This document shows, piece after piece, positions 158 through 19,448 of a stretch of 64,000 nt of DNA. Where the stretch lies: the NCBI GenBank assembly GCA_963758495.1, contig CAVWVI010000002.1, positions 1-64,000 on the forward strand, in the 5' to 3' direction. The notes beneath the pieces were generated by a model. That model worked only from the letters and a program-made list of their open reading frames with translations. It had not been told where the DNA came from and did not search any database. The first letter of the stretch is position 1. Every line of letters starts with the position of its first letter. The translations under genes were made by a program, and so were the position numbers. The DNA is from Oligoflexia bacterium (lineage in GTDB: Bacteria > Bdellovibrionota > UBA1018).

Positions 158-1516
158 TCAAACTTGAATGCTTAACCATGTTTTACAAACTTCTGAACGA
201 GCCGCGAGGGTTTCCTGCTGTAACTCAAGTTTGGGCTCATTCTCTTCCATGATGATCTCAATTTTTGGCGTTCCTTCATCGATTGCAGGGCCATCGGGTG
301 CCTGAGTTCCACACATCCAGCTCCAACATGATTTGAATGGTGCCGTTAATAGTTTCTTTGTTCCTCTGACCCACTCTTTCACTTTTGCAGGCATCAAAGG
401 TTTTCCGAGGTAATTATGCCAAATATGGAGACCCGTAATGGTAGCTGCGCTTGTAGTCCACGTTGCCAGTTGTAAGGCAGTCAGATTGTCTGAAATCCCC
501 ATGAACTCAAATGCAGTCAGAGTGTTTCCAGTTTGAGTCCCTCCAAAGTCATAAATCACTGGAGTCCTAGCTCCATCGTGACTAGCTGCATAGACTTCTT
601 CAAAAGATCGAACAGCTCCAGTTACCAGACCTATTGCAAGTAATTCTGCAAGACCTGTTGCTGCAATACCAAATCCTTTCGGACTTACATATTTGGCACC
701 TAGACCCATCCCACCTCCGAGGACAATTGCCGAAGCAGCCCCGACTCCAACAGAAGGGCCTAGGGCGTCCATACTATTTTTAGAAAGGAGAGCCGCGAGC
801 GCCGTCAATGTACCTCCTTCAGTAGCCTCTCTCAGTGTATTCCAGAATAGGCTCATCGCCATGGCAAGGCGGCTGCCAATAACAGCCTGTTGATTTGCCC
901 CTGCTTGATTCTCAAGATCTCCTTCGCGAGCAGGCTCGTGGTAGTTTGAAATTCCAAACCATTTGGGTATTTTTAAGGTCATCTTTGTGACAAAAAAAGC
1001 GCCGATCGTTTTCGAGGCACCTTCTCCTGCTTCGACTCCATTGGCTACAGTATCCAGGTTTCCAACTGCTTGTGCTACACTAAAGCCTACTGCTATAGAA
1101 ATCACACCCCCTGTAAGTACGCCACAGGCAATTGCGGGAACCAATCTTTTCAAATAACTTCTCTTTTCATCTAACGTTAAGCCTGGATTTTTAATCACGG
1201 CACCCAGGTGACTGGCGCCAAACATGGCGGCTTCAGAAAGTTCTCGAGCAATAATACAAGCCACAGTAGAATCAATTACGGGAGCTGCGGAAGACCCTGT
1301 ATCTGAACCGCCACTCGCAGTTTGTGCCGCAACCGCTGGGATCAAAAGCGAGAACATGGCTAATGTTGTACCGCTAGGTATTTTATATTGAGTTACGGGC
1401 GTAGAGGTTTCTGAAGAGAGTTCTGATGGAGCGGGAAATGCGTGGGCTACTTGATTGATAGAAAAGCTAAGTAATAATAGAAGCGCAAATACGCGCTTTA
1501 TTTGTTCTCGGGTCAT
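158..1516 (-). CDS. FTR1/EfeU-family iron permease with an extended N-terminus
   Basis: Two RExxE motifs (ARELSE, LREATE), each at the start of a multi-TM half; N-terminal signal-peptide-like segment; Fur-like box upstream. Confidence 0.75.
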   Translation of the reverse strand: MTREQIKRVFALLLLLSFSINQVAHAFPAPSELSSETSTPVTQYKIPSGTTLAMFSLLIPAVAAQTASGGSDTGSSAAPVIDSTVACIIARELSEAAMFGASHLGAVIKNPGLTLDEKRSYLKRLVPAIACGVLTGGVISIAVGFSVAQAVGNLDTVANGVEAGEGASKTIGAFFVTKMTLKIPKWFGISNYHEPAREGDLENQAGANQQAVIGSRLAMAMSLFWNTLREATEGGTLTALAALLSKNSMDALGPSVGVGAASAIVLGGGMGLGAKYVSPKGFGIAATGLAELLAIGLVTGAVRSFEEVYAASHDGARTPVIYDFGGTQTGNTLTAFEFMGISDNLTALQLATWTTSAATITGLHIWHNYLGKPLMPAKVKEWVRGTKKLLTAPFKSCWSWMCGTQAPDGPAIDEGTPKIEIIMEENEPKLELQQETLAARSEVCKTWLSIQV

Positions 1517-1914: not shown

Positions 1915-2280
1915 ATGAGGATCAACATGGTTGCTCATTTAAATGGTTATGTTGCTTCAGCTGGCAAAAAGGGACGTGGGGTTTTTGCTCGGAAGAGGTT
2001 GGTAGCTGGTGTTATTATTGAAGTTTCTCCTTATATTCAAATTCCACCCCGTGATGATTCGAGATTGAACGAAACAGTTTTGGGGTCTTATTGGTTTGAA
2101 GTCAAAGGTAAGTGGTCTGCGATAGGTTTAGGGCATACATCTCTCTATAACCATAGTGAAAAACCGAATGCCACATTCTCCGTTAATGCGAGAAGACGTA
2201 CTATTATGATTAAGGCTCTTAAATCAATTCGTCGGGATGAAGAAATTACTATTAATTATGGTTATAAATTAGATAAGTAA
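1915..2280 (+). CDS. SET-domain protein (lysine methyltransferase-like)
   Basis: KGRGVFA, YNHSxxPN and EEITINYG SET motifs. Confidence 0.9.
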   Translation: MRINMVAHLNGYVASAGKKGRGVFARKRLVAGVIIEVSPYIQIPPRDDSRLNETVLGSYWFEVKGKWSAIGLGHTSLYNHSEKPNATFSVNARRRTIMIKALKSIRRDEEITINYGYKLDK

Positions 2281-2291
2281 TAGATATTATT

Positions 2292-3452
2292 GTGGTTATT
2301 TATCCTTCCTCTCGAACTCGAGTGGGTGCTGAAATTCAAATTTCAGCTCATATTGAGTTACGTTTAAAACGACGAAACACACCTTCTGAGCTTTGGTTTC
2401 GTTTCCCAGAAAGCGAACATTCTCAAATATCGTCCGATCTGGATCCTTTTGTCGTGGCTGTACTTCTTCTGGCAATGCAAAACAATGAGCCTATTGAAGT
2501 ACGGGGCTCTCTCTCTAGAAAGCTTTTTCTGGGCTTGAAAGAATATCAGCAAATTTATCATTCTTGGTTTCCAGAGCGATTTCACATCATTGAGATTCAG
2601 CCTGAAAAACTCCGTGATGATAGGGACGAGGAAATTAAAGCTGCTGGTTGCGCATTTTCGGGTGGAGTGGATTCGTTTTACACTTTGCTCACCCTTTTAG
2701 ATCAATCGAATGGAGAGAAGAGTGGGAAACTTACACATGCGATATTTATGGCTGGTTTTGATATGCCTCTTCATTTAACGGCATCTATTAGAGACTTAAC
2801 TCAATCTTATGCTGAAATGATGATTTCGCTTGGAATTCATTTTGTCATTGGAAGTACTAATGTCAGGAGGTTTGTGAACTCGGTTGATTGGACCAATGCA
2901 CACGGACAGGCTCTGGTGGCGACGGCGCTCTTTTTTAAAAATACATGGAAGGAATTCTATATTCCCTCCAGTTATACAGGCACTACTTACCCGAAGTGGG
3001 GAAGTCATCCTAGGCTCGATCCCTTGCTTTCAACAGAATCGCTTAAAATGATACACCATGGTTCTCAAGAAAATCGAGTCAGTAAGCTTGAATCCATTTC
3101 TCAAGCACCTGAAAGTTACGAAAGATTAAGAGTTTGTTGGATCCAAGATCTTGGACTCAAAAACTGTGGAAAATGTGAAAAATGCATTCGGACTATGGTG
3201 GCTTTGGATATTCTAGAAGCGCTTCCTTATTATCGTACTTTTACTCAAGAAGGACTCAGTCGAAGCAAAGTAAGAAATCTGACTATGCGAAATTATCAAT
3301 CACGACTTTTTGCGTGGGAGCTCATGGGGGAGGCAATTCTTAGAGGAAAATTTAGAATCGTAGTGGATTTGGGGTATTCGCTTTTAAGGCGAGAGCTGTT
3401 TTATTGGTTAAGGTGTGTCAAAATGTTCATATTTGGAAAAATTAGAAAATAG
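2292..3452 (+). CDS. PP-loop ATPase, QueC-like superfamily; function unknown
   Basis: AFSGGVDS PP-loop; C-terminal RVCW...NCGKCEKC Zn motif; extra ~115-aa N-terminal domain absent from canonical QueC; GTG start. Confidence 0.65.
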   Translation: MVIYPSSRTRVGAEIQISAHIELRLKRRNTPSELWFRFPESEHSQISSDLDPFVVAVLLLAMQNNEPIEVRGSLSRKLFLGLKEYQQIYHSWFPERFHIIEIQPEKLRDDRDEEIKAAGCAFSGGVDSFYTLLTLLDQSNGEKSGKLTHAIFMAGFDMPLHLTASIRDLTQSYAEMMISLGIHFVIGSTNVRRFVNSVDWTNAHGQALVATALFFKNTWKEFYIPSSYTGTTYPKWGSHPRLDPLLSTESLKMIHHGSQENRVSKLESISQAPESYERLRVCWIQDLGLKNCGKCEKCIRTMVALDILEALPYYRTFTQEGLSRSKVRNLTMRNYQSRLFAWELMGEAILRGKFRIVVDLGYSLLRRELFYWLRCVKMFIFGKIRK

Positions 3453-3594: not shown

Positions 3595-6500
3595 GTGAAG
3601 TTTATTACGCATTTTGTCTTCATTAGTGCGGTTATTCTGTTTGCCCATCTGCCAGCTCAAGCCGGATGTGGAACCCAAACCTATACTTGGACGGGAGGCG
3701 GTGGAAATACAAATTGGACCAGAACCAGTAATTGGTCTCCTGTTGGATATCCAGGGCAAGTTGCGAATACAAGTGCATTGATTAATTCTGCTTCTAAAGT
3801 TCCTGCATATCCCGCAAATAATTTGAGTCTTGCATGTCTTGAAGTCAGTTCTGGTTCTCTTACTTTAACTCCTGGTTCGGCGGAGACATTAACGATTACT
3901 GGAGATTACTTTATGAATTTGAATGTGGGGTCCATTACCACAAATTCGAATCTCACCATCAATATGAATGGCACCACTCCGCAATCTTTTGAAAATGTAG
4001 ATTCCATTGATAATTTAACCATTTCTAATCCGAGTACCGTGGACTTGACTCAGACTTTTAGTATTACGACAGCACTCACTATTAATTCTACAGCAGGAAC
4101 AATTTATATTGATGGCACTGTATCTGTTCCTAATAATTTTACTATTCCGGCAAATACTACAGTTGAAATTCGGAATGGAGGTACTTTGGTGACTTATGGC
4201 AATGTCACCATTACTGGAGTGTTGAGGGTAGACGGGGGTGGGAAATTCAACCCTGCGGGGAGCAGTACAGTGACTGTGTCGACAGTAGGATCCTTGCTTC
4301 TTGAAGGGTCATCAGGGAATCTAGCGGTTATGGATTCGTTTGGAGGTATTGATTATGGATTAATTGTGAATGGATCATTAACTGCCAATTACTTTACTAT
4401 CGCTCGATGTCGAAATGTAACTCCCGGAGTCGATGTTTTTGGAACGATATTGGGACTTTCGAATGGTGAATTTCACTATTCTGTTAATGAATCGCTTACG
4501 CTTGAGAACGGCGCAACCAGTATAGGAACATGGAATAATGTGGGATTTTTTGATGATAAGAGTACAGGTATTATTGCAGTCAATGCGACTAATTACGATT
4601 TGGAAAGTAATCCCGGCATTATTAATGTGACTAACTATTCTGGAGTGAGTGCAACGAATGATACAAAAAATGTGATTCGATTTGGAGCTGCTGCTCCTAT
4701 TGCCTTACAGGTTGTTAATGCATCTATTAATCCTCCGTCATCTCCTGTGGGCGCAAATGTGAACCAAGTCTTTGGAGCTTTCGGTTTCAGTCTTTCAAAT
4801 AGTGGTACAAGCACTGCTATTAATTCAATTACGGTTACTTTAGATGGAGTGAATTCTGCTTCAGATGTCAGTAATGTAAGCTTGTATTATAATACGACAG
4901 GGGACTGTTACAGTGGGGGTATGGGAGGTCCGAGTTGGTCCGGGACCTTTTCCGGAAACCCTGCTACTGCAATCATTCCAATCACCCCAAATACTGTCGT
5001 GCTATCTAATAATACAAAACAATGTCTCCAAGTTTATTTTACAACGAGTGCAGGTGCTATTAATGGAGACACTATCGGCGCAAAAATTGCTGCGAGTGCA
5101 GATGTGGTGAATAGCCAAGGCTATGCTTACTCGATCTCTTCGTCTCCTCCAGTTTCTTTGGGGTTAGCGACTATTACCGGGTCCTCCTTGAATAAATGGA
5201 CAGGAGCCACTTCCGGTGCTTGGGCCACCACGAGCAATTGGAGTAACGGTGTAGTACCCACTTCGACTACAGATTGCCAAGTAGGAGCAGGAACGAATAT
5301 CCCCTTGTTTAGTGCGACAACGACCATCAATTGTCAGAATGCCCTCCTTGTTTCGGGAGGGTCGATGAACTTTGGAAATAAAGCCGTAACTTTCGATGTG
5401 AGCAGCTCAATATCAGTAGCGTCTGGATATTCGCTCTTGAATTCAGGCTCCTCCACCCTAGTGTTTAATGGATCTTCTCTTGAAAGTTCAGATTTTAATG
5501 GAGGGACGTGGGGAGGAAATGTCACCATCAATAATGCAGCAGGAGTGACTGCTCATAGTAATTGGACGATTGGTGGTAATTTAACCATTAGTGCGGGAAC
5601 ACTTACAGTTGCTTCTGGCCAAACGCTGATCATAGAGGGAAATTCTCTCACGATTAGTGGAACCGGGGCAGGATTGACGTTGATGCCTGGAGCAACCTTG
5701 GAGTTTACTAATGCAAGCTCACCGGTATTGACAGTAGGGAGTGGAGGAACACTCACCCTGGTCGGGACAGCGAATCAACTTGCTTATGTGACATCAGATT
5801 CAACAAGCCATCCTTATACGGTCAATTTCACTGGAACATCTAATATAGCTGCACAATATTATTCTTTTAGTAATCTTGGTGCTGCGGGGGTCACTCTAGG
5901 GGCCTCAACCACCATAAATACAACGAATGCATTGAGTAATGGCACCTTTATTTATCCTGTAGCGAATAACACTACTTTTTTAACCCTCAATCAAAAGGTT
6001 CCAGGGAATGTTTTGACCGGTATGACCTTTGATTCGGGTGGGTCTACGGCAACAGGTGTTCTTGCCGTTAAGGCCACCTCCTCTGTTCCTACACCGGCGG
6101 CTACGCTTCAGCTAAGTGGTTATGTCGGGGACTTAACAGGTTCGAGTCACTCTTCAAATACCGGGTCTAATTATACGATATCCTGGGGCACTTCCTCAAA
6201 TCAGTTGGAAATATCTCAACAAGTTTCGACCACGCCTGCAAGCGTCAGTCGGGGTGCCACCGTCACCATGGGAGAGTGGGGCATTCAAGAATTACAAGCG
6301 AGTTCTACTGCTACCAATATTACTTCTATTACAGTGACTATGACTGGCACTGATACGGGAGCCGATGTCAGCTCTGTACAACTGTATCAGGATACGGCTT
6401 GTAACGGAACAGTAGGAACACAGTTAGGGTCATCACAAACGTTTTCTGGAACTCCAGCGACAGCAGCCTTCTCTGGACTTTCTTACACGGTACCAGCTTC

Positions 6501-9500
6501 TGGGGCGAACGTTTGTATTATTGCTCAGTACACTATTGCGAGCACTGCAGCAGCGGGCACTATAGGAGCGAGTATTAATGCGGCTGGAGACGTAGTGAAC
6601 TCACAAGGGTACACTTTTTATAGTGCGAATGCACCTCCAGTGACTTTAGGTTCACCCGGAGGGGTAACAGGAACTTCTACCACTTGGACAGGTGGCGCGT
6701 TGACTACGAACTGGGCAACCTCAGAGAATTGGAATGCGGGAGTTCCCACTGCCGCTACAGATTGTGTAATCAATGCAACAAGCTTTAGTCCAACAATTGC
6801 CAGTGGTACTAATGCATTATGTAATCATCTCACGATAGCTTCAGGAGCGGCACTCACTTCTGCTTCGGGTAGCACGTTGACAGTTTCCGCAGATATTACT
6901 AATAATGGAACATTTAACCAAAATTCTACAGTTACACTTTATGGAAATTTATTTAATAATGGTACCTTCAATTCGCAAAACACCAATGCCCTGACTTTTG
7001 CCGAATCAGGCACTTCTACTACTCAAGCTATAGGCGGAACCAGTGCATTGACCATTGGGTCACTCGCTTTTAATAAAACCCTTGGGGGTGGTATCGTTCA
7101 AATTTCGAATCCTAGCGTGACTGTGACTACGTTAACCATGAGCGGTTCCATGGAGCTAGATGTTTTAGGAGCTGCGGTACTCATTTTACCTAATGGCGTT
7201 TCTATCCCCGCTAATAATAATTTTCAACTTGAACAAAATTCTATTTTAGAAATGGGGAGTGGAAAGACGATCACAGTTGCGGGTGGAACGTTTACAGTGA
7301 ATGGGGCTCAATCTCTTTATCCAACCCAAACTTATGCGAATTCAGGAGTGGTTACGAATACGGGTGGCACGGGTACTTGGACCCTCTCAGCAACTTCCGG
7401 TACAGTGAATCTGACGGGTTGGATTTTTGATTATGTAGGAACGGGAGGAATTACCCTCGGAAATGGGACCAGCTCAGTTACAATTTCAAATTTGGGGTAC
7501 GGTCAATTTTCTCATCTCCCAAGTACTTTTACTTCAACTGCTCTGACCATTAATACCAGTGGCACTGTACCGACTTCTGTTTCTAATATTGGTTGGAATT
7601 GGACGACGGCGACGCCTGGAATTAATAGTGTGAATAGCACAGCGGTGAATCCTCCTCCGGCTCCTACTTCCCAGGGATCTGGATATATACTGCTGAAAGC
7701 CGAGACTTGTAGTTCGACGATTTCCATTTCAAATTGGTTTGGAGATTGGTATCAGGGTGTCAATCAACCTCCTCCGAACTATGTGACCAGTAGTAGTGGT
7801 TCATGCGTAGTCTCCATGACTACGGCACTTTCACCTGTGAGTTTGACGAGCTTTACGGCAACGCCCTATAATGGCTCAGCTGTATTGAATTGGACGACGG
7901 GTTTGGAGTCTCAGAACCTCGGCTTTAATGTATATCGAAGCTTAAGCCCATCAGATGGGTTTGTTCAAATTAATTCCGAGCTGATTCGTAATCTTGTGGT
8001 TGCGTCTACTATTCATGGAATATATCAATTCTATGATAATGGCATTTCAAATAACATTACGTATTATTACGAAATAGAAGACATAGCGGTAAACGGAACT
8101 CGAACCTTACATGGACCTCTTTCCGTTACGCCAAGTGCAACCTTGTCGTCGGCTCCGCCCCCCAATACTGCCGCCATTGTTCAATCTAATTCAGATAACC
8201 CAGTTCCAGCGCCAAGTCCTACAAATACCTTTTCACCTGGCATTCAACAAGTTTCTAATGGAGTCTCTATTTTAGCAAAATCAGCACATACTTTTCGATT
8301 AGAAATTAATGTGCCTGCTTTTACTACTGCCGCTGCCGAAGTTGCACCTTATCTTAGAATGTCCATTCCAGGTTACTCACTGAGTACTATTACAGGTCAG
8401 CCTGAATTACCTCAGCAGGTTGTGATGGTTGAAATTCCCGCTGCTCAAACTGCGGCATATACTATCATCAGTCAAAATCAATCCTCTCAGAGTGGAATTC
8501 AAATTGCTCCTGTAGACAAGTGGACGGCGTCAGCTGGAGCAATGGTTCCGTCATGGTTTTTAGATTCAGCATTTTATGCAGTAGATGCTCTATTGCCTGC
8601 TAATACTGTTAGCCTAGGTACGATTACGCAGAGTCAAGGTAAGTATTATTTACCCGTGATTGTACAGCCCATCTCATATGACCCAGTTCAACATACAATT
8701 CGAGCTACTTCGCAGATTGTGATGGATATTTCTCTTGATGGCGATGCAAGCTGGCATCCTGTAAACCCCAATCCGGCAGGTGGAGTATGGGGCCAAGAAG
8801 ATGGATTGAAAATAACTGTGAATCAGGCAGGAGTTTACCAACTCTCATTCGGCGATTTTGTTAATGCCGGGGTGGATGGAGCATTTCAGGGTAAGGATCT
8901 GACACGATTTAAACTCTATTCTCAAAACTCAGAGATTCCTCTGAATGTCACCAGCAGCGTAAATGGAGGGGCGTTTGGAGCGGGGGATTCATTTCAATTT
9001 TATGCGCCCTTTTTTGATACAGGAGAGAGCCACTTCAATACCTTGATGTTGATTGCGGATTCTCCATCTTCTGCCCTAGGGTTGCGCATGTCATCTCTTA
9101 ACAGCGGTCCGTCAGGGGCGTCTCTCACATCAGCACCCGGTTATGTAAAAATTTCTCGAGTAGAACAAAATACTTTAGAGAATTTGGGTTCTCCTTATGA
9201 AGAGGGGGTAGATCACATTTTTTGGGCTCAAATATATGCTTCTCCGACTGATCAATCACAGGGTACCTTTGCTACTTCTATTCAACTTCCTGAACTCATG
9301 CAAACAGGTACTGTTACACTTCAAGCATTTATGGCGGGAAGCTATGGCTATTACACTCAAGAGACTTTTCACCATTTGCGCATTTGGGTTAATTCTTCAA
9401 CGGTCCCTCAAGGAGATGTTGTATTCTTTGGAAATTCTTCATACAACGCGGTTGTTAATATTCCCGCCAATGTTTTTGTGCCCGGATCAAATCTGATCAC

Positions 9501-11256
9501 TTTCCAATCTGTTGGCGATATGAATGGCAATGATTATGATATTCAGTTATTGAACTGGTTTTCTGTTGATTATACGCACAACTGGACTGCGGATAATGAT
9601 TTGGCAGATGTCATTTCTAGTCAACCGGGAGTGGCTTATCAAGTTTCAGGATTTTCTAATAACGATGTGGTTGCTTATGATGTAACAGATTATACTGCGA
9701 CTGCAATGCTGAGTAATTTAAATATTTTGCCTGATGGGTCTGGTGGATACTCTGCTGGCTATTCAACTACGGCAAATAACTCACAATATGGACATCATAT
9801 CTATTTAACACGAACAAGTGCGATCCCCTTGCCACAAAGTATAGAATTAAATGCCGGCAGTAATCTTTCCAGTACAGCACAAGGTGCGGATGTCATTTAT
9901 ATTGGAACTTCAGATCTTTTAGATGCTGTTGAGCCTCTTGCGAATTTACGGGCGCAACAAGGATTTCGAGTCCAGCTAGTTGATGTTGAAGATATTTATT
10001 CAGAGTTTGGGCAAGGTTTGAGAGATGCTCAAGTAGTAAAGAATTTTATCCAATATGCAGTTGCAAACTGGACGCCTCCTTCTCCTTCCTATATTGTACT
10101 GGTAGGTGATGGGACAGATGATCCAAGAAATGATTTAAATTATGGAGTATCTGGAACAGTTCCAATTTACATGATGGTTGGATCTGCAGTGGATTTTGCG
10201 AGTGATAATTGGTTTGTTTCTTGGGATCCAAATGACAACCTTCCTAATTTAAGCATTGGACGTATTCCAGGTAATACTCCAGATAAAATTGATGCCTATG
10301 TTACAAAGGTTTTAAATTATGAAAGTAATAGCGCTCGGCCCGCAGGGGCGGCGGCTGGGAATATCACTCTTGTTGCTGATATAGATCAAGATGGTGGGGA
10401 AAATTTTGTTCCTAGAGCCGATGCCTTGGCGTCTCAAATCACTTCTTTGAATAGTTCTCTTGCTCCTACTAAATTATACCGAACTCTACTCACGGATCCT
10501 CAACTGAAACAAGGAATTAATAATGCATTTAATTCAGGCTCAATCATCATTCATTACATCGGGCATGGTGCTGAAAATATGTGGGCTGGCAGTACAGTAT
10601 TTACAAATGCGGATGCAGATTTATTACAAAATACACGCCTTCCTGTTGTCATCGCAATGGATTGTCTCAATGCGGCGTTCTTTTATGCGGATCCTGGCTT
10701 TCAAACCTTATCGGATCGTTTATTATTTAATGCAAACGGGGGTGCGATTGCATTTTGGGGATCTACGTCATTAACTAGTCCTCAAATGCAGGCTCCTTAC
10801 CAAACGGCTCTTTATCAAATCATTGCATCACAGCCTGGAGGGATTCGATTGGGAGATGCGGTTCGGTTAGCAAAAATTCAAGGAGGCTGGGATCCTTACA
10901 AAGGTGAAGCTGTCGAATCATGGACGCTGCTAGGGGACCCGATGCTCAAAATGATTTTACCTGGCGTGGCTACTGCGGCGACTTCAACAGTAGTATTTAC
11001 ACCTCCATCTCAGGGCCCACAATCTGGAACATCTTCTGACAATTCAAATCAAAGCAGTGGCGGAGGAAGTGGCGGAGGTGGTGGTTTCCTGGGCTGTGGC
11101 ACTGTAGATTGGGATAAAAATGATTCGAATGGTCGGGGAGGCGGCGGCGGATTACCCCCTACTGGTGCAACAGCAGAAATGGGTATTCTTATCTTAATGC
11201 TCTATTTCAGTAGACGATTCGTTTCATTGCCTCAAGAAAAGTGGATGCATTTTTAA
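3595..11256 (+). CDS. Giant secreted/surface protein: repetitive T/S/G/N-rich beta-strand passenger, C25 propeptide, C25 (gingipain-family) cysteine peptidase and C-terminal sorting tail
   Basis: Signal peptide; three WTG...W...NW repeats; PVSLTSFTA domain; GQPELP propeptide-like motif; YIVLVGDG, SDNWF, SIGRIP, HYIGHG (His2324), AMDCLN (Cys2357) and WTLLGDP C25 motifs; Gly-rich linker, GCG, hydrophobic helix, RR. Confidence 0.85.
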   Translation: MKFITHFVFISAVILFAHLPAQAGCGTQTYTWTGGGGNTNWTRTSNWSPVGYPGQVANTSALINSASKVPAYPANNLSLACLEVSSGSLTLTPGSAETLTITGDYFMNLNVGSITTNSNLTINMNGTTPQSFENVDSIDNLTISNPSTVDLTQTFSITTALTINSTAGTIYIDGTVSVPNNFTIPANTTVEIRNGGTLVTYGNVTITGVLRVDGGGKFNPAGSSTVTVSTVGSLLLEGSSGNLAVMDSFGGIDYGLIVNGSLTANYFTIARCRNVTPGVDVFGTILGLSNGEFHYSVNESLTLENGATSIGTWNNVGFFDDKSTGIIAVNATNYDLESNPGIINVTNYSGVSATNDTKNVIRFGAAAPIALQVVNASINPPSSPVGANVNQVFGAFGFSLSNSGTSTAINSITVTLDGVNSASDVSNVSLYYNTTGDCYSGGMGGPSWSGTFSGNPATAIIPITPNTVVLSNNTKQCLQVYFTTSAGAINGDTIGAKIAASADVVNSQGYAYSISSSPPVSLGLATITGSSLNKWTGATSGAWATTSNWSNGVVPTSTTDCQVGAGTNIPLFSATTTINCQNALLVSGGSMNFGNKAVTFDVSSSISVASGYSLLNSGSSTLVFNGSSLESSDFNGGTWGGNVTINNAAGVTAHSNWTIGGNLTISAGTLTVASGQTLIIEGNSLTISGTGAGLTLMPGATLEFTNASSPVLTVGSGGTLTLVGTANQLAYVTSDSTSHPYTVNFTGTSNIAAQYYSFSNLGAAGVTLGASTTINTTNALSNGTFIYPVANNTTFLTLNQKVPGNVLTGMTFDSGGSTATGVLAVKATSSVPTPAATLQLSGYVGDLTGSSHSSNTGSNYTISWGTSSNQLEISQQVSTTPASVSRGATVTMGEWGIQELQASSTATNITSITVTMTGTDTGADVSSVQLYQDTACNGTVGTQLGSSQTFSGTPATAAFSGLSYTVPASGANVCIIAQYTIASTAAAGTIGASINAAGDVVNSQGYTFYSANAPPVTLGSPGGVTGTSTTWTGGALTTNWATSENWNAGVPTAATDCVINATSFSPTIASGTNALCNHLTIASGAALTSASGSTLTVSADITNNGTFNQNSTVTLYGNLFNNGTFNSQNTNALTFAESGTSTTQAIGGTSALTIGSLAFNKTLGGGIVQISNPSVTVTTLTMSGSMELDVLGAAVLILPNGVSIPANNNFQLEQNSILEMGSGKTITVAGGTFTVNGAQSLYPTQTYANSGVVTNTGGTGTWTLSATSGTVNLTGWIFDYVGTGGITLGNGTSSVTISNLGYGQFSHLPSTFTSTALTINTSGTVPTSVSNIGWNWTTATPGINSVNSTAVNPPPAPTSQGSGYILLKAETCSSTISISNWFGDWYQGVNQPPPNYVTSSSGSCVVSMTTALSPVSLTSFTATPYNGSAVLNWTTGLESQNLGFNVYRSLSPSDGFVQINSELIRNLVVASTIHGIYQFYDNGISNNITYYYEIEDIAVNGTRTLHGPLSVTPSATLSSAPPPNTAAIVQSNSDNPVPAPSPTNTFSPGIQQVSNGVSILAKSAHTFRLEINVPAFTTAAAEVAPYLRMSIPGYSLSTITGQPELPQQVVMVEIPAAQTAAYTIISQNQSSQSGIQIAPVDKWTASAGAMVPSWFLDSAFYAVDALLPANTVSLGTITQSQGKYYLPVIVQPISYDPVQHTIRATSQIVMDISLDGDASWHPVNPNPAGGVWGQEDGLKITVNQAGVYQLSFGDFVNAGVDGAFQGKDLTRFKLYSQNSEIPLNVTSSVNGGAFGAGDSFQFYAPFFDTGESHFNTLMLIADSPSSALGLRMSSLNSGPSGASLTSAPGYVKISRVEQNTLENLGSPYEEGVDHIFWAQIYASPTDQSQGTFATSIQLPELMQTGTVTLQAFMAGSYGYYTQETFHHLRIWVNSSTVPQGDVVFFGNSSYNAVVNIPANVFVPGSNLITFQSVGDMNGNDYDIQLLNWFSVDYTHNWTADNDLADVISSQPGVAYQVSGFSNNDVVAYDVTDYTATAMLSNLNILPDGSGGYSAGYSTTANNSQYGHHIYLTRTSAIPLPQSIELNAGSNLSSTAQGADVIYIGTSDLLDAVEPLANLRAQQGFRVQLVDVEDIYSEFGQGLRDAQVVKNFIQYAVANWTPPSPSYIVLVGDGTDDPRNDLNYGVSGTVPIYMMVGSAVDFASDNWFVSWDPNDNLPNLSIGRIPGNTPDKIDAYVTKVLNYESNSARPAGAAAGNITLVADIDQDGGENFVPRADALASQITSLNSSLAPTKLYRTLLTDPQLKQGINNAFNSGSIIIHYIGHGAENMWAGSTVFTNADADLLQNTRLPVVIAMDCLNAAFFYADPGFQTLSDRLLFNANGGAIAFWGSTSLTSPQMQAPYQTALYQIIASQPGGIRLGDAVRLAKIQGGWDPYKGEAVESWTLLGDPMLKMILPGVATAATSTVVFTPPSQGPQSGTSSDNSNQSSGGGSGGGGGFLGCGTVDWDKNDSNGRGGGGGLPPTGATAEMGILILMLYFSRRFVSLPQEKWMHF

Positions 11257-11682
11257 ATAAAGTTGTCTGAATTGAAGCAATGATCTCAATATGAGTCGAG
11301 CTATTTTAGATTTTAAGTGTTCAGGTGGTATAGACCAATACGAAAATAACGCGATTGAAGCATCTACAAAGTCCGTTTGAATTTTTAGTCTTTTTTTTGA
11401 AGATGTTTTTTGCAGTGCAATAACTTTCCCCCAGATTTGTTGATCAGATAAGACTTCCCATGCTAGGGATGAATCCCCTTTGATGATCCAAGATCCAGGC
11501 ACTTCTTTGCTTCGCCTGAGCACACGATGAACTGTCCAATCTTTCAAATCAGTCCTTCCCAGTATCAGATCTCCGGACTTGATTTGGGGTAGGTCCTGGA
11601 TATTCAACCATTGGACTGCAACCCGATCGTGCGGCGCGATCAGAGGGTGCATGCTCATGCCTTCTACCTGTATCCATTCCAA
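11224..11682 (-). CDS. S24/S26-family peptidase (signal-peptidase-like, Ser/His type)
   Basis: VEGMSMHP (catalytic Ser), VHRV and IIKGD motifs; TTG start; no N-terminal TM anchor. Confidence 0.8.
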   Translation of the reverse strand: MEWIQVEGMSMHPLIAPHDRVAVQWLNIQDLPQIKSGDLILGRTDLKDWTVHRVLRRSKEVPGSWIIKGDSSLAWEVLSDQQIWGKVIALQKTSSKKRLKIQTDFVDASIALFSYWSIPPEHLKSKIARLILRSLLQFRQLYLKMHPLFLRQ

Positions 11683-11702
11683 AGTCTGACCTCGAGGGTG
11701 AG

Positions 11703-11861
11703 TTAAGATTTCAAGCGACTCGCATTACAAGTGGGGACACTTGCTTTTCTCCCACCCGTAGAGACGCCATTGCAGAGTGCCGCTATTGCAGTCAATTCTT
11801 CGGATTTAAGTGATGGTTTTTCGTATTTTAATTTATTTTTTTTTGATTTATTCCGGTCCAT
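11703..11861 (-). CDS. Putative RiPP precursor peptide, 52 aa: MDRNKSKKNKLKYEKPSLKSEELTAIAALCNGVSTGGRKASVPTCNASRLKS
   Basis: ATG at 11861 preceded by an AAAAAGGA SD; YEKPSL matches the YxxPxL RRE-binding leader motif; lies between the kinase and peptidase genes. Confidence 0.8.
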   Translation of the reverse strand: MDRNKSKKNKLKYEKPSLKSEELTAIAALCNGVSTGGRKASVPTCNASRLKS

Positions 11862-11881
11862 TGAGTGGTTCCTTTTTCTAT

Positions 11882-12775
11882 TTATAGTGTATCGTTCAAT
11901 ACCATTGGCCAAAAGTCTGAGTTTTTTTTGAAATGGAGATTTTTGAAAGAACACGGAGCAGATGCGAACAAAGCTGCAAGATTGAATCGTGCTTCTACTT
12001 CGTTATCCCATTGATCAGTCATAGCGCTTGCTAAAAGACTAAAAACTTTTTGTGATAATGGAACTGATTTAAGGGAGTGCTTTATATCTTGTTTTAATGG
12101 GTAAATTCCCGCTAGAGGGGCACTGATATTAGGAGGAGAAAATCTGGAATACCCACACCCTAATGGAGCAGCATGTACTTCCGCACTTTGAGTGATGGGA
12201 TTGAAATGCACTATAACGGCATCATCTCCCAATAAAAGTGCATTCGAATCAGCCTTAGAAATCATTTCCACTGTTGTCGATTTTCCCGCACCACTCTGGC
12301 CAAAAAAAACATATCCAAAGCCATCCCGAATCACTGCGGCACCGTGAAGTAGAAAAGAAAAATTCTCTAAGAGCATATTTGGGATAAACCAGCGTAGGCA
12401 ATTATGTATAGCGTCGTCAAGGTTGGGTGCTAGCATCGCAATAGCGCGATTGCCCGTCCGTTTTGCGGCAAAGTCTCGTTGAATTACGGTATGATCTCTG
12501 ATTTCAAATTCTGGATCAGGGTCCTCCCAAATAAAAGATAAAGCTCCCGTAGGTGAATAGGGGGTAGCAAAGATTTCTCCATGATTGGATATTTGGGAAT
12601 CAGCAGAGATTAAGTAGTTTTCGAAAAGCCGGTGAATATGATCTGTTAATTCATTAGAATAAGTGACCCAATCGATTCGAATCCCCGCAATCTTTATTGG
12701 AATTCTAGTTCCTTGAGTCTCAAACTCTCTATGGGAAATTGCATTGAGTAGGAATTTACGCCGATCAATAGACAA
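11882..12775 (-). CDS. HprK-related P-loop kinase (RiPP-cluster/ScmC-like type)
   Basis: LLHGAAV...FFGQSGAGKST (HprK His plus Walker A) and LLGDD motifs; TTG start with GGAGGGAG SD. Confidence 0.8.
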   Translation of the reverse strand: MSIDRRKFLLNAISHREFETQGTRIPIKIAGIRIDWVTYSNELTDHIHRLFENYLISADSQISNHGEIFATPYSPTGALSFIWEDPDPEFEIRDHTVIQRDFAAKRTGNRAIAMLAPNLDDAIHNCLRWFIPNMLLENFSFLLHGAAVIRDGFGYVFFGQSGAGKSTTVEMISKADSNALLLGDDAVIVHFNPITQSAEVHAAPLGCGYSRFSPPNISAPLAGIYPLKQDIKHSLKSVPLSQKVFSLLASAMTDQWDNEVEARFNLAALFASAPCSFKNLHFKKNSDFWPMVLNDTL

Positions 12776-12885
12776 AAAAGACTCCCTCCAGTGTTCAAAT
12801 AAACATATGACTCGATTATAACCTTAAACGACCAACAAACAAGTTCCTGTTGCTATATGTTTATAAAGTTGATTTACTTACTAAA

Positions 12886-13161
12886 ATGAATCTAATTCAA
12901 TCGATAAAACCGACTCGAAGAGACAAGCTTCCTTGGCGTGAAATGGATGGCAGGGCAGTGATTATTGACCCTAAAAAAGGCAAAGTTCATGAATTGAATC
13001 CAGCGGCTACTTTGATTTGGAAAACTGCTGATGGAAGTCGATCTTTGCAGGAAATTGCAGAACTTATGGAAAACGAGTTTGAGATATCGTTAGAACAAGC
13101 ATTAGCTGATGCAGTCGAATTCCTTGCAGTGCTTAAGACACATCATTTGATGATTGAGTAG
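12886..13161 (+). CDS. PqqD-family RiPP recognition element (RRE)
   Basis: HELNPAATLIWKTADGSRSLQEIAELM...ALADAVEFLAVLKTHHL PqqD signature; ~91 aa. Confidence 0.9.
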   Translation: MNLIQSIKPTRRDKLPWREMDGRAVIIDPKKGKVHELNPAATLIWKTADGSRSLQEIAELMENEFEISLEQALADAVEFLAVLKTHHLMIE

Positions 13162-13181
13162 GAAAGGGTGACTTTCTCACT

Positions 13182-14210
13182 ATGTCTATTTTATCCCGTT
13201 ATCGAGAATGGTCTTCATCCAGTCTAGTTCCCTTGAATACAACTATTGAGCTAACCTATCGATGTAATGAACGTTGCAGTCATTGTTATTTAGCGACCTA
13301 TGATGATAATGCGGATGGTCGTCCTCCATTGAAATTGGTAGAGTGGAAAAAAATATTGGATCAAATTGCTGATGCCGGTGGTTTAATGCTGACTCTAATT
13401 GGAGGCGAAGCAATGATGCATCCACAGTTTTGGGACATTAGTGAGTATGCAGCGGAAAAAAATTTCGCACTGATTCTTATTACGAATGGTTTATTAATCA
13501 ATCCACCCGTAGCGGAAAAAATGGCTCAATTAGGATTCTATCAAGTAGCGATTAGTATTTACTCCTTCTATCCAGAAATCCACGATAAAATGACCCAGCG
13601 CAAGGGATCTCATGCTAAAACAATCCGGGCTATAGAATTGCTTCATGAGCGTGGAATTGACATAAAACTGAATTGTTTACTGACGCAAGATAATATTGAT
13701 ACTTGTTTTGATTTAGAGAATTGGGCAGTGGAGCGTCAATTGCAAGTCCAATTTGACCCTATGGTCACTCCCAAAACAGACGGGTCTTTGGATTCCACTC
13801 TCAAGCGTGCGACCCCTGAGCAATTATTTCATTATTATTCACAATTGAAAAATAAGGGGAGGGGGCCTGCTCCCATCGATTCAGGCACTCCAGAGGATCC
13901 AGTTTGTAATGCCGGAAGAGGAAAATGCGCAGTGAATGCCTATGGTGATTTACTGACCTGCTTAGAAATTCGTAAATCACTCGGAAACTTAAGAGAATAT
14001 TCATTTAATGATCTTTGGCATTCTGCAAATGCCGAGGCAATTCGTGCGTACCGTAATATGGATCTTAAGTTTGAGAGTCAATGTGGAGATGGATCTTTTT
14101 GTGACCATTGTCCAGGAATGGCCGGAGCGGAAGTAGGAGACCCAATGGCTCCTGTGCCCTATTTGATGGAACTTGCGCAGATTAAACGTCGAGTTTTCGA
14201 AAGAAATTAA
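13182..14210 (+). CDS. Radical SAM/SPASM-domain peptide maturase
   Basis: CNERCSHC (CxxxCxxC), GGEA, ITNG; SPASM-like CNAG...GDLLTC...GNL...CGDGSFCDHCPG. Confidence 0.9.
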   Translation: MSILSRYREWSSSSLVPLNTTIELTYRCNERCSHCYLATYDDNADGRPPLKLVEWKKILDQIADAGGLMLTLIGGEAMMHPQFWDISEYAAEKNFALILITNGLLINPPVAEKMAQLGFYQVAISIYSFYPEIHDKMTQRKGSHAKTIRAIELLHERGIDIKLNCLLTQDNIDTCFDLENWAVERQLQVQFDPMVTPKTDGSLDSTLKRATPEQLFHYYSQLKNKGRGPAPIDSGTPEDPVCNAGRGKCAVNAYGDLLTCLEIRKSLGNLREYSFNDLWHSANAEAIRAYRNMDLKFESQCGDGSFCDHCPGMAGAEVGDPMAPVPYLMELAQIKRRVFERN

Positions 14211-14218
14211 TCCCTAAA

Positions 14219-15253
14219 ATGAGACTTCATTTATTTGTGCTGCAGCTACTCAATGTAGAATCATTTAATTCAGATTTAACCTTCGAGAGCAAGTTAGAGG
14301 TTCAAAGTGGAACAGTGGAGGAGTGGACTGATGCCTATGATTTTGCAGTAGCACTTCATGCTGCTCTGCCTTTTCTTACGACGCTTCGTAAAACCTCCGT
14401 CTGGGAGCAGTTGCCGGATCGAGTGAAAATAAATTTTGAAAAAAATTTAACAAAAGAGCGAATGATTTTATGTTTACTTGCAGAAGAGTTGCAGTTCTCA
14501 GTCCAGTTATTAGCTCAAAATAAAGTTCCCGTAATTGTTTTAAAGGGAATGGATCTTTCGCATAGATTCTATCCCGATAAAATGCTGCGCCCAATGACAG
14601 ATGTAGATCTTTTAGTGAAAGAAGAAAGCTTTAAAAAAGCAGTTCAAGTGCTTTTAAAGGCTGGGTATAAAATTATTGGAAAGCAACGGAATGATCGCTA
14701 CCGGATTGAAATGTCCCGTTTTGAAGATGGCCTGGCAGTTGAACTTCATTCGAGGCTTCTTTTGTCTGACGAAAAATCTGATTTAATTCAATATTGGGAG
14801 CAATCTGTCCCTCACCCTCTTTCTGGATTTCATCAAGATGTCAGAGTTTTATCAAGTCAGGATCTTCTGGTTTATTTAATTCGGCACGCTACAGTGCAGC
14901 ACCGACTGGAATCTCCCATTTGGTTAAATGATATTTATTATCTACTTCAGGCTATAATAAAAAATGAGGTTTATTTTGATTGGGATCTATTTTTAAAGGA
15001 AGTTACAAAAAGGAAGATAGTTTCCGCTAGTTGGTTTACATTATCCTTGCTTCCTTGTGAGTTGGTTCCAGTGTATGTATTAAAATCATTACATAAAAAA
15101 ATGGGATACATTCGTTTTCAATTTCTTCGTGCGCAAGTGAACTGGGTAAATTGGTTTTTAACGCGACGTATTTCAAAATTAGAAATTTTTAAGATTAGGT
15201 TTTTACTGAGAGATAATTCCTTCCAATTCGCACACTACTTGAAAAGTAGATAG
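14219..15253 (+). CDS. Nucleotidyltransferase (NTP_transf_5-like, RiPP/lasso-cluster type)
   Basis: IVLKG...YP...RPMTDVDLLV, VELHSRL and WLNDI motifs. Confidence 0.85.
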   Translation: MRLHLFVLQLLNVESFNSDLTFESKLEVQSGTVEEWTDAYDFAVALHAALPFLTTLRKTSVWEQLPDRVKINFEKNLTKERMILCLLAEELQFSVQLLAQNKVPVIVLKGMDLSHRFYPDKMLRPMTDVDLLVKEESFKKAVQVLLKAGYKIIGKQRNDRYRIEMSRFEDGLAVELHSRLLLSDEKSDLIQYWEQSVPHPLSGFHQDVRVLSSQDLLVYLIRHATVQHRLESPIWLNDIYYLLQAIIKNEVYFDWDLFLKEVTKRKIVSASWFTLSLLPCELVPVYVLKSLHKKMGYIRFQFLRAQVNWVNWFLTRRISKLEIFKIRFLLRDNSFQFAHYLKSR

Positions 15254-15432: not shown

Positions 15433-17007
15433 ATGTTACTAAAATCGCTGTATAATAATATATTAAATAGATTTAATTATTTTTTAAAAATTACATTATT
15501 TTTGAATTTGGTTAGTTTAGGTGTTTTTGCTTCTTATGGGTACTCTCATGGTAAAGCGCCTGTGAAATTCAAAGATGTTAAGGGTTGGCAAAAGCTGGGA
15601 CCAACGTTTTTAGGTGGCCTCGATGCGGATGGCAATTTAATGGCAGTTTATGACTTAACGTTTCCTTCTTTGCTAGATCGGGTTCGATTGGGTGTATTGG
15701 ATTTAAGAAAAAACAATTTAGATAATGTGACTCGACGCTTACGAGATGTAAAGAACTATGGAAATCTTTCTAGGGTGGATGAAAAGAAAGTAAATGAGTC
15801 ATTGGCAACTTTAGAAAAGTTTATGACGGGACCTGCTCAAAAGAACTTATTAGAAACTGGAACTGTTTTACCCGCAGGATGGTGGAAAAGTATTCCGTGG
15901 AAACACTCTGTGATGGGGCTAAGTAATGAGGCTCCAAAACGATTCTTTCTATCAGATTTAAATGTGCCTGTAATTGCGACCGATTTTAAGCTGTTTCAAT
16001 CTCAATTAAAAAAAATAGGAGAGGGTGACCTTTTAAATCAAATTGAATTTGTGAAGTCTAATATTGGGTATCAAATTTATTTCACTCCTCAAAATACTTT
16101 AGCGATGATGGACTCAGATGTGATTTCTGAGCCTCGGAAAATTGTCGATCTACATTGTCCTAATTGTGGAATTATTACGAGTGTTGGGTACGATGCCTTG
16201 AGAGTTACTCTCAAATCCATGATGTCCTTAATTCCTGTGCCCATTGTAGCTGGGCTTGCAACCGCCGGGATTAATGAATATTTTTCTTTTAAAAGAGAAT
16301 TGATGCAAGCGCACATTGTAATGGCTTTAGAATTAATTCGTGAAGCAGAGAAAAATGAGAATGCAGATTCTCCATTTAGATCTTTAACTGATCAACAGAG
16401 AAAAGATGTCACTCATTATCTATTGTTGGCTCAATCTAGCTTAGAGTCATCAGTAAATTGGATCATTACAACTCCTGAAGCTGATTGGATTAAACAAGGA
16501 AGTAAGGATCTAGCTCAAGCCCATGATTCAGAGAATTATTTATCTCAGCGAGGGACAAAATTAGAGCTCTTGAATCCGAGATTCGCATTCGGAATGGCAC
16601 CTAATGGCCATAATAAAATCTATTCACTAGCTGCGTTTAGATATTGGAATCTGTTGTCACCGTTTGTGGCTATAGATTATTCTCATCCGTATCGGAATTT
16701 TTATGAGCGGATTGCGATAGAAACAGGCTATATTTTGATTAATTTTTTATCGCCCTTTTCCCCCTATCCAGGAGTAGGAAGTGCAGTTGCCGAAGTTTAT
16801 AAGGTTTTACTTGAGGATAGAATGCACGATGTGCAGCGCTGGGAAAGTCGACTTACTGCTCATTTGAGTGTGAGGGCTAGTTTAGGTGAAACTTGGAAAG
16901 ATGAATTAGACATTCTAGCTGTCCAAACTATCAATCCATTTGAGATCAGTCCAGAGCAGGGGCTAGAATTGGCAAATGAAAGAAGAAAGGCTTATAATCT
17001 GCCTTAG
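15433..17007 (+). CDS. Hypothetical exported/membrane protein
   Basis: 524-aa ORF with SD and N-terminal hydrophobic segment; no family recognised. Confidence 0.6.
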   Translation: MLLKSLYNNILNRFNYFLKITLFLNLVSLGVFASYGYSHGKAPVKFKDVKGWQKLGPTFLGGLDADGNLMAVYDLTFPSLLDRVRLGVLDLRKNNLDNVTRRLRDVKNYGNLSRVDEKKVNESLATLEKFMTGPAQKNLLETGTVLPAGWWKSIPWKHSVMGLSNEAPKRFFLSDLNVPVIATDFKLFQSQLKKIGEGDLLNQIEFVKSNIGYQIYFTPQNTLAMMDSDVISEPRKIVDLHCPNCGIITSVGYDALRVTLKSMMSLIPVPIVAGLATAGINEYFSFKRELMQAHIVMALELIREAEKNENADSPFRSLTDQQRKDVTHYLLLAQSSLESSVNWIITTPEADWIKQGSKDLAQAHDSENYLSQRGTKLELLNPRFAFGMAPNGHNKIYSLAAFRYWNLLSPFVAIDYSHPYRNFYERIAIETGYILINFLSPFSPYPGVGSAVAEVYKVLLEDRMHDVQRWESRLTAHLSVRASLGETWKDELDILAVQTINPFEISPEQGLELANERRKAYNLP

Positions 17008-17118: not shown

Positions 17119-18132
17119 TCAATGACTTCGTTTAAATAGATTGAGTAAATAAGTAAGAGCAGGGAAGATAATTATGGATCCCACTATCAATGCATAAAAA
17201 AGATAACGGAGCGTTACATCAGGAGCTGCCGAGTTGTAAATAGTAATGGGGACGTTTTGAGTTGTATTTACGATAAGAATTGGAAATTGAACTTTAAACC
17301 ATCCCATAAGTATAAAACCGACTTGAGATGCCGCCAGAATTCTTGATTGTACTACTTGATGGCTCAATAAGCTCTTCCAGAGAGGGAAAAGGAGCAACGT
17401 TGCGATGAGCATACAAATCAAGGCCCATAAATCCTGAGTAAATTTTTGAATTAAACTGAAGTGATCTGTGGCCGAAGCTATAAATACAAATGCTCCTGAA
17501 ATGACGGCGAGTAGATTCGCAATTTGTGCTCTCCGAATGAAGACCTTTTGGAGTTCTTTATCCTGAGTTTCCCCTATTAAATAGACTGAGGCTAGAAAGG
17601 TAAACAGGATGCATACAAAGATCCCTATGGAAAAAGAGAAGTAATTGAACCAGGGGGCCACATAATTTAAAAAATACCCTTCCGGAGGGCCTACTTCAAT
17701 TCTCCTCTCTGACATAACACCACCCATAATAATACCCAAAAAGAGAGGAGTTGTGATGCTCGAAAGAATAAAGATTGTAGAGTAATAGTTTTGTGACCGA
17801 TCTCGTATTGCATCATAGTGCCTGAATGTAAATGCGCTCCCTCGTAAAATCACACCTATCAGCATGATCGTCAAAGGAATATGAAAGGTAATGGAAAGCT
17901 CACTATAGGCCTTAGGAAATCCATTAAAAAGAATCACAATTGCCAGAATCAGCCACATATGATTGGCTTCCCAAACTGGCCCCATGGCATGGGTTATTAA
18001 TTCCTTTTGTTCTTCTTTCTTTTTCTTTCCTAAAAATAATTCAAGGATTCCTGCACCAAAATCTGCACCTGCTAACAAACAATATAAAAGAATTGAAAGT
18101 CCAAGAAAGAATGCAATTAATTCAGCCCACAT
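17119..18132 (-). CDS. cydB: Cytochrome bd ubiquinol oxidase subunit II
   Basis: GADFGAG, PVWEANHMWL and LRGSAF motifs; overlaps the end of cydA. Confidence 0.93.
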   Translation of the reverse strand: MWAELIAFFLGLSILLYCLLAGADFGAGILELFLGKKKKEEQKELITHAMGPVWEANHMWLILAIVILFNGFPKAYSELSITFHIPLTIMLIGVILRGSAFTFRHYDAIRDRSQNYYSTIFILSSITTPLFLGIIMGGVMSERRIEVGPPEGYFLNYVAPWFNYFSFSIGIFVCILFTFLASVYLIGETQDKELQKVFIRRAQIANLLAVISGAFVFIASATDHFSLIQKFTQDLWALICMLIATLLLFPLWKSLLSHQVVQSRILAASQVGFILMGWFKVQFPILIVNTTQNVPITIYNSAAPDVTLRYLFYALIVGSIIIFPALTYLLNLFKRSH

Positions 18133-19414: not shown

Positions 19415-19448
19415 ACTGAATCAGACTCCAAGAAGCATATCGATATCA

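Follow-up and report, generated by a model that had tools for sequence, protein, structure and literature searches.

Why should a cassette of peptide-modifying genes stand beside the gene of a giant protease-like protein, and what ties the two together? The question is raised by the first 64,000 nt of contig CAVWVI010000002.1 from an Oligoflexia bacterium (assembly GCA_963758495.1; source genome 3.66 Mb, 92% complete), here called the window, in which a cassette for a peptide made on the ribosome and modified after translation (RiPP) and a giant gene of the C25 peptidase family occupy positions 3,595-15,253 and are known here from sequence alone. Our answer is that the cassette, six small genes shared by predatory bacteria of the Bdellovibrio type, is an undescribed pathway resembling that of the linear polyphosphorylated peptides (LPP), common in the sampled genomes of the phylum (13%), and that the giant depends on it, one-sidedly. 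A functional tie between giant and cassette is likely. As to its nature, we prefer transpeptidation, i.e. ligation of the peptide by the giant, to which we give a probability of roughly 0.3.

The dependence is seen in a sample of 401 genomes of the phylum, in which the peptide was detected by a profile of 20 precursors. The profile finds the precursor in 53 of these genomes and in 307 database proteins, and a C25 match is present in 131 genomes. A giant was defined as a C25 frame of at least 1400 aa, and the counts of giants refer to the matches listed, 150 of 233 (the other 83 are weak matches without a size). Among these, a giant is found in 44 genomes, 42 of which also have the peptide, and in 2 of the 348 peptide-negative genomes, G198 (540 contigs) and G302. 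Giant and peptide lie within 15 kb on one contig in 31 of the 42 genomes; in the remaining 11 they are farther apart or on different contigs (one of these, G135, also has a truncated giant beside its cassette), i.e. even unlinked pairs, such as those of G003, G115 and G163, still share a genome. The pair is spread over 11 families, with a patchy distribution within families; kin are not independent. Eleven peptide genomes have no giant among the matches listed, and four of these are explicable: G360 has fragments at contig ends, the contigs of G258 and G381 end at the cassette and G368 is in 360 contigs. The named relatives are mostly metagenome-assembled genomes of Bdellovibrionota/Oligoflexia. 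At the level of the locus, the radical S-adenosylmethionine (rSAM) protein of the cassette retrieved 19 regions. The peptide is encoded in 14 of them and a complete or partial C25 giant in 10; four are short or truncated where their contig ends, and one is unrelated. The order and strand of the cassette genes vary freely among the loci, and in relatives the C25 gene adjoins the nucleotidyltransferase (NTase), rSAM, peptide or S26 peptidase gene or an ABC transporter pair, in variable orientation, while peptide and enzymes are conserved together.

The second line of evidence is a lineage in which cassette and giant are physically joined. A search with residues 1400-2480 of the giant returned 213 proteins, and the best 120, to which the following counts refer, fall into 36 close relatives and 84 proteins at a greater distance, mostly DUF11-containing giants that, where named, come mostly from Acidobacteriota. 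According to a profile of the cassette peptidases, an N-terminal S26 domain is present in 58 of the 84 distant giants and in none of the 36 close ones. All three S26 catalytic motifs are kept in 49 of the 58 fused giants, and in 40 of the 58 the S26 domain precedes a signal-peptide-like segment (hydrophobicity test). When 78 metagenome loci were fetched with the fusion proteins, the presence of S26 followed from the query, that of the other genes did not: all 30 loci with at least 4 kb upstream hold a RiPP recognition element (RRE), an rSAM gene and a kinase, and in 29 of the 30 S26 and C25 are in one frame. These loci gave 29 distinct peptides that carry a YxxP leader, end in Ser and contain three Cys, with Val at position -4 relative to the first of them; a small residue two before that Cys belonged to the pattern by which they were picked. 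In a quick tree of 85 catalytic domains, 20 rows of which are from the fusion lineage, the C25 domains of giants and fusions form a group to which the phylum's short C25 proteins do not belong (Shimodaira-Hasegawa-like approximate likelihood ratio test 97). The short C25 proteins (about 490-1040 aa) were rejected as partners of the cassette: they lie on separate branches, and ten short-C25 regions hold no cassette gene bar an unrelated ABC ATPase. A positional exception is G371, where a short C25 gene lies 6 kb from the cassette.

It is useful to compare the cassette with LPP, peptides of Bacillota made by LppA/K/B/S/D/N (Popov et al. 2026, PMC13381572). LPP clusters contain an S26 peptidase, an RRE, a kinase of HprK-like type, an NTase and an MsbA-like exporter; LppS, whose Ser/His/Asp triad was tested, removes the leader with the help of the RRE, and LppK polyphosphorylates Ser3 of the core (PMC13381572). 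The window shares with LPP the S26 triad, a discrete RRE, the HprK-like kinase, the NTP transferase and the lack of a cyclase, as well as a YxxP leader of matching register in which position -3 is hydrophobic and position -1 small. On the other hand, it adds an rSAM/SPASM enzyme and the giant C25 protein, and its core is short, with two Cys and a C-terminal Ser, whereas the LPP core is long, variable and phosphorylated at Ser3. The hosts are Gram-negative and carry an ABC-2 pair, or no exporter, instead of the MsbA-like protein. The cassette fits the LPP leader spacing P-x9-F-x-[T/A] but departs from the more complete LPP consensus (HQ, FET). The main text of the LPP paper does not mention C25, DUF11 or Radical_SAM, which occur solely among the columns of a supplementary domain matrix (PMC13381572). 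That every complete cassette includes an rSAM gene speaks against a linear, LPP-type product. The initial annotation had suggested an uncharacterised RiPP class; an uncharacterised, cyclase-less pathway it is, but four of its five enzymes match those of LPP, so that it is a variant of a described kind. Our literature search found no description of the rSAM plus C25 variant, most subscription papers being outside its reach, and the main text of two RRE surveys, as far as it was available, does not mention it (PMC7470986, PMC12710340).

The substrate of the cassette is encoded by a gene of 52 codons (11703-11861, minus strand), recognised by its conservation and codon pattern. Its ATG is preceded by a purine-rich, Shine-Dalgarno-like run. 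In 31 precursor genes codon positions 1, 2 and 3 vary at 0.35, 0.27 and 0.67, respectively; since the third position varies most the frame is coding, and the 52-aa peptide is a real gene, more than chance. No Pfam or NCBIfam model matches any of 20 precursors. The pattern applied is matched by 33 of 35 collected precursors, the other two being dropped; all 33 contain exactly two Cys, and they end in Ser (31) or Thr (2). The lasso-like YxxPxL leader noted earlier is there (Tyr13, Pro16, Leu18). The predicted leader comprises residues 1-28 (11778-11861, minus strand), its Tyr13, Pro16, Ile26 and Ala28 corresponding to Y-16, P-13, F-3 and T-1 of LppA, and the predicted core residues 29-52 (11706-11777, minus strand), 24 aa with Cys30, Cys45 and the C-terminal Ser52. 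Ten residues after the leader Pro there is Phe in 14, Val in 10, Ile in 3 and another residue in 6 of the 33 precursors (Ile in the window); twelve residues after it there is Ala in 28, the window included. Position 3 of the predicted core, which belonged to the pattern used to cut the sequences, carries Asn or Asp in every one of the 33 (Asn in the window) instead of the Ser3 of LPP. By analogy with LppA we infer that the leader is cut after Ala28, which would give a 24-residue core. One cassette without a giant C25 gene (L102:7340-7817, minus strand) has a pair of precursors in tandem; each ends in Thr and carries a Gly-rich insert ahead of its first Cys.

All seven open reading frames described in the initial annotation, the C25 gene and the six of the two divergent arms, were found where it had placed them, and the window proteins match Peptidase_C25, Propeptide_C25, PqqD, Radical_SAM, SPASM and NTP_transf_5 above the Pfam cut-offs. 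The S24/S26 and HprK family matches stay under the cut-offs in the Pfam and NCBIfam scans. The gene of the S26-like peptidase, which is of the archaeal signal-peptidase-like kind (11224-11682, minus strand), is recognised as a reading frame with a conserved triad, Ser10/His52/Asp70, invariant in 32 aligned sequences. Its convergent overlap with the C25 gene measures 33 nt (11224-11256), as earlier reported; it was rejected as a functional feature, being incidental and not conserved in relatives. Since the LPP pathway has an S26 enzyme as its tested leader peptidase, the S26 protein of the window probably takes the place of the B2 protease of lasso peptides. The initial annotation was right that cyclase and B2 protein are missing as families: the cassette has no macrolactam cyclase (the sole strong asparagine-synthetase match is on another contig, C3), and the B2 family PF13471 has no match in the source genome, its positive control having matched in 2 of 14 genomes; the B2 function, however, is probably met by S26. 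In relatives, one locus (L086:6197-7399, minus strand) encodes a protein in which a class I methyltransferase domain is joined to the cassette S26 peptidase, and another locus has rSAM and S26 in one 491-aa frame, a possible fusion or frameshift (L113:11959-13434, plus strand). The HprK-like kinase gene (11882-12775, minus strand) has weak family matches and conserved motifs, i.e. His144, a Walker A motif at 159-167 and Asp184/Asp185, kept in 34 sequences.

A short spacer (12776-12885) between the kinase and RRE genes separates the two arms. The stand-alone PqqD/RRE gene (12886-13161, plus strand) has a probable ATG start in a frame open from a TTG at 12850; the protein matches Pfam PqqD (E 9e-17) and, best among NCBIfam models, ScmD, and its Leu49, Asn50, Asp87 and Phe91 lie at a constant offset of 17 from L32, N33, D70 and F74 of LppB. 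The rSAM/SPASM gene (13182-14210, plus strand; Pfam Radical_SAM and SPASM) encodes a CxxxCxxC motif at 28/32/35 and five SPASM Cys (242, 249, 260, 307, 310), and the protein stays under every curated NCBIfam cut-off shown. Two rSAM subtypes go with the same peptide family, the window's being the one that keeps the five SPASM Cys. The prerequisites of sacti- and ranthipeptides, an rSAM/SPASM enzyme and conserved Cys donors in the core, are present; the two invariant Cys suggest a thioether made by the rSAM enzyme, and a disulfide would explain them equally. The NTP_transf_5 gene (14219-15253, plus strand; Pfam E 5e-39) encodes an NTase-like protein whose DxD motif, Asp128/Asp130, is invariant in 32 sequences. 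The addition of a nucleoside monophosphate, considered in the initial annotation, is not what the tested homologue does: the sole one with a tested product, PsmN, gave a +162 Da hexose on phospho-Ser, and LppN gave nothing.

Phosphorylated lasso peptides are the next closest systems. Paeninodin PadeK and pseudomycoidin PsmK/PsmN share with the cassette the YxxPxL leader, the RRE, a kinase of the C-terminal Ser with an Asp-Asp motif and a DxD NTase. The Asp-Asp pair of PsmK and the DxD of PsmN were tested, and PsmN is required for the +162 Da hexose on the phosphate of phospho-Ser (PMC6993621). In contrast to these peptides the cassette lacks the macrolactam cyclase, the B2 peptidase and Thr at -2, and has S26, rSAM and C25 instead; membership among lasso peptides was rejected, there being no cyclase in the cassette and no B2 family match in the genome. 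The SynChlorMet system (ScmC-F) and the HPr-rel-A/B models of NCBIfam have in common with it a PqqD-like protein, a kinase-like ScmC and an rSAM/SPASM protein; the make-up of SynChlorMet beyond the model names is taken as general background. Scores against ScmC, ScmD, ScmE and ScmF are 15.5, 37.9, 74.6 and 76.2 bits, all far under the cut-offs of 125, 100, 400 and 400, and SynChlorMet names two rSAMs while the cassette has one. A second cassette in G012 (L065:5135-12819) has a SynChlorMet-like layout with three rSAM genes, an RRE, an ABC-2 pair and an NTase; its peptide of 68 aa has two or three Cys and ends in Ser. Two other genomes contain a lasso-type leader and short core in frame with a domain of about 300 aa, methyltransferase-like by eye (L098:9814-10917, minus strand; L100:8744-9889, plus strand); these frames adjoin an asparagine-synthetase-like gene, a kinase, an RRE, an NTase and an ABC-2 pair in glycosyltransferase-rich loci.

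As for export, the statement that no transporter is visible holds for the window and, at the threshold tested, for the source genome, but not for the relatives, many of which have an ABC-2 permease inside the cassette. Members of the permease clade were found in 48 of the 401 genomes, and 38 of these 48 belong to the 53 that carry the peptide; no more than 6 candidates per genome were scored, and seed sequences came from at least 9 of the 38. So the absence of a transporter from the window is no argument against secretion. The same clade occurs in lasso-like clusters among glycosyltransferases. No MsbA-like exporter is present in the window, relatives carrying the ABC-2 pair in its place.

The giant gene (3595-11256, plus strand) encodes 2553 aa, beginning with a signal-peptide-like N-terminus that is followed by a low-complexity, beta-rich passenger of about 1400 aa, an FN3-like domain, a gingipain-type prodomain, a PorU-like module and a tail. 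The protein is predicted to be exported and likely surface-exposed. The prodomain (Propeptide_C25, residues 1581-1719; 8335-8751, plus strand) is supported by Pfam and by a fold match to the prodomains of RgpB and Kgp, and the catalytic domain (Peptidase_C25, residues 2101-2453; 9895-10953, plus strand) by Pfam (E 9e-77). The His2324/Cys2357 dyad aligns to those of RgpB and PorU and is invariant in 51 sequences. Phe2271 occupies the position of RgpB Asp163, a residue that we take to set Arg specificity. A predicted model of residues 1400-2480 (predicted local distance difference test 85, predicted template modelling score 0.79) has PorU as the best fold match of the module (E 6e-28, 845 columns), followed by RgpB and its prodomain. 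Each of the 120 proteins has an FN3-like domain ahead of the module, and the prodomain is found in all 36 close relatives and in 1 of the 84 proteins of the fusion lineage. Giants of 2300-3500 aa differ in their N-terminal part and share the C25 module. In G115 (L105, L106, L107) there are three giant paralogues (2516, 2814 and 3302 aa) with different N-terminal regions, two of them in tandem and none beside the cassette.

The C-terminal tail (11065-11256, plus strand) contains a Gly-rich linker, Cys2501, a spacer, a short hydrophobic segment and basic residues, and resembles Cys-containing sorting signals. In a test for Cys, hydrophobic segment and basic residues 27 of the 36 close relatives pass and the window's tail is narrowly under the cut-off; none of nine giant tails matches an NCBIfam CTERM model. 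The MYXO-CTERM and JDVT-CTERM signals resemble the tail in Cys motif, hydrophobic segment and basic cluster, but the tail has a longer Cys spacer, a shorter hydrophobic segment and no model match (10.1101/2023.06.07.544157). PorU and the gingipains, also of family C25, share with the giant the His-Cys dyad and the PorU-like domain series, and the giant's prodomain matches those of RgpB and Kgp; in contrast to PorU, the giant has a 1400-aa passenger in cis and the Cys-hydrophobic-basic tail instead of the C-terminal domain of type IX secretion. SprA_N and Por_Secre_tail had no match in the source genome, but control genomes gave none either. The single Rce1-like match of the genome, a candidate sorting protease, lies within a 1142-aa frame (G000:C3:1087996-1088301, plus strand), and one other protein has a similar Cys-hydrophobic end (G000:C4:882428-884269, plus strand).

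Conservation, motifs, co-occurrence, fusion and fold likeness are what was observed; the chemical steps that follow, and the nature of the tie, are our reading of them. The RRE would very probably bind the YxxP leader, and the kinase is likely to phosphorylate Ser52, as PadeK and PsmK do with the C-terminal Ser of their substrates. It is an even chance that the NTase, like PsmN, places a hexose on the Ser52 phosphate or supplies one for it, and a Cys-based thioether made in the core by the rSAM enzyme is slightly favoured over epimerisation or another link. S26 would probably cut after Ala28 with the help of the RRE, exposing a new N-terminus X-Cys, and the peptide would on balance be exported, via the ABC-2 pair where there is one. 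The six small genes would thus be likely to yield a 24-residue peptide, likely cross-linked through Cys and with its last Ser likely phosphorylated and sugar-capped. We speculate that an acyl intermediate arises between the cysteine of the C25 domain and the passenger or a cargo and is resolved by the free N-terminus of the peptide, leaving a phospho-sugar handle on the surface protein; this last step is tentative. Ligation is nevertheless preferred because the closest fold is that of PorU, a proposed sortase-like transpeptidase (PMC4560394), the passengers are exchangeable, and the peptide gains a free N-terminus and a phospho-sugar handle. A stand-alone sorting system in which S26 frees the N-terminus, kinase and NTase add the handle and a PorU-like domain in cis ligates the giant adhesin, the RiPP being its linker, is doubtful as a whole. 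If true, the RiPP would serve bacteria outside Bacteroidota as a covalent anchor, or tag, of their surface proteins and not as a diffusible metabolite.

Several observations weigh against ligation. The PorU match is loose (template modelling score 0.40, root-mean-square deviation 9.7), the giant scores 208.9 and 160.6 bits against the PorU models NF033707 and NF052324, far under their cut-offs of 420 and 450, by sequence it is equally near the plain proteases RgpB and Kgp, and it has a gingipain-type prodomain; its tail, too, already looks like an anchor. LppN was without effect in the tests reported (PMC13381572). No NTase or permease was matched in the 78 fusion-lineage loci, and the source genome (92% complete) has no cognate ABC-2 permease at the tested threshold, its best permeases belonging to other operons, so that export and sugar capping are not general. 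G302, a 100% complete genome, has a giant C25 without the peptide or a close kinase match. In the opposite direction G176, G218, G221, G237, G297, G371 and G404 (93-99% complete) have the cassette and apparently no giant among the matches listed, and G317, missed by the peptide profile, is an eighth such genome; searches for the N-terminal and C25 regions of the giant in five cassette-only genomes each gave no match (no positive control was included). With at least seven near-complete cassette-only genomes the peptide must have a use without the giant, and contact between peptide and C25 domain is hypothetical. The earlier proposal that the product acts with the C25 protein therefore stands in part: the tie is non-random, as the 42 of 44 genomes and the S26::C25 fusions indicate, and C25 and peptide do co-occur in gene neighbourhoods, yet cassettes lacking C25, which had been named as evidence to the contrary, exist.

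The cassette-only genomes speak for a parallel function without contact, nearly as likely as ligation, in which an LPP-like phospho(glyco)peptide would have a surface or exopolysaccharide role while the giant, as an adhesin-protease, would serve the same trait (attachment, biofilm or prey contact), both being co-inherited and co-expressed. A Wzz/Wzc gene is found no farther than 3 kb from two of the giant-less cassettes (L070, L078), just as LPP and paeninodin clusters sit in capsule loci (PMC13381572), and the ABC-2 clade that serves the cassette also serves lasso-like clusters among glycosyltransferases. The fusion of S26 to the N-terminus of the giant and the dependence in 42 of 44 genomes exceed, however, what loose co-inheritance would give. 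The one-sidedness of the dependence would also suit a mature peptide that acts as a non-covalent activator or inhibitor of C25 latency, during export or at the surface; a conserved core with two or three Cys fits a folded inhibitor, and the fusion lineage, in which the prodomain is nearly absent, might need another brake. We consider such a regulator unlikely, as the window's own lineage keeps the prodomain, cassettes persist without a giant, and an elaborate phospho-sugar at the C-terminus would not be needed for simple inhibition.

A secreted signal or antagonist, with the C25 domain as its late extracellular maturation or release protease, is improbable. It would agree with the ABC-2 permease in 38 of 53 peptide genomes, the intact His-Cys dyad and the predicted export of the C25 protein, but leader removal is already supplied by S26, the 2500-aa passenger would be unexplained, and antagonistic peptides usually vary much more between families than this core does. 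Pseudomycoidin and paeninodin, moreover, showed no antibacterial activity (PMC6993621). Least probable is cytoplasmic gating, i.e. that the RRE-bound modified precursor switches on S26, which in turn gates export of the giant: the position of the fused S26 ahead of a signal-peptide-like segment (40 of 58) and the lack of transporter matches in fusion-lineage loci and source genome are in its favour, whereas the window's lineage provides the giant with an N-terminal signal of its own and keeps S26 as a separate gene, and most relatives have an ABC-2 pair. To return to ligation, if the peptide is ligated RiPP chemistry would be joined to surface-protein anchoring; if not, the cassette is still a common, undescribed LPP-like pathway. 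The role of LPPs and of paeninodin-type phosphopeptides is given as unknown (PMC13381572), and the variant provides this question with a concrete partner, a C25 clade that hardly occurs without the cassette and is elsewhere fused to the leader peptidase. Two further objects of study are an uncharacterised rSAM/SPASM enzyme, whose substrate is short and well defined, and a PorU-like enzyme that occurs away from the customary type IX context.

A plasmid search with the rSAM protein gave 10 records, all below 30% identity, the best being an unrelated YcaO/TfuA cluster, and a promoter and terminator scan found 24 and 10 sites versus 30 and 10 in shuffled sequence, i.e. no excess. The flanking genes (a SET-domain gene at 1915-2280, a 386-aa frame at 2292-3452 and a 524-aa frame at 15433-17007) were rejected as cassette members, having no match in related loci. 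The two genes that stand just upstream of, and in the same orientation as, the giant gene (1915-3452, plus strand) encode a 121-aa SET-domain protein and a 386-aa protein without a family match, neither of which is seen in related loci. Farther out lie a 452-aa membrane protein (158-1516, minus strand) with a weak, sub-cut-off match to FTR1/EfeU iron permeases and, on the other side, a set of ordinary neighbours (17119-21297, minus strand), namely a cytochrome bd-like subunit pair (by eye), a creatininase-family gene and an amidohydrolase gene.

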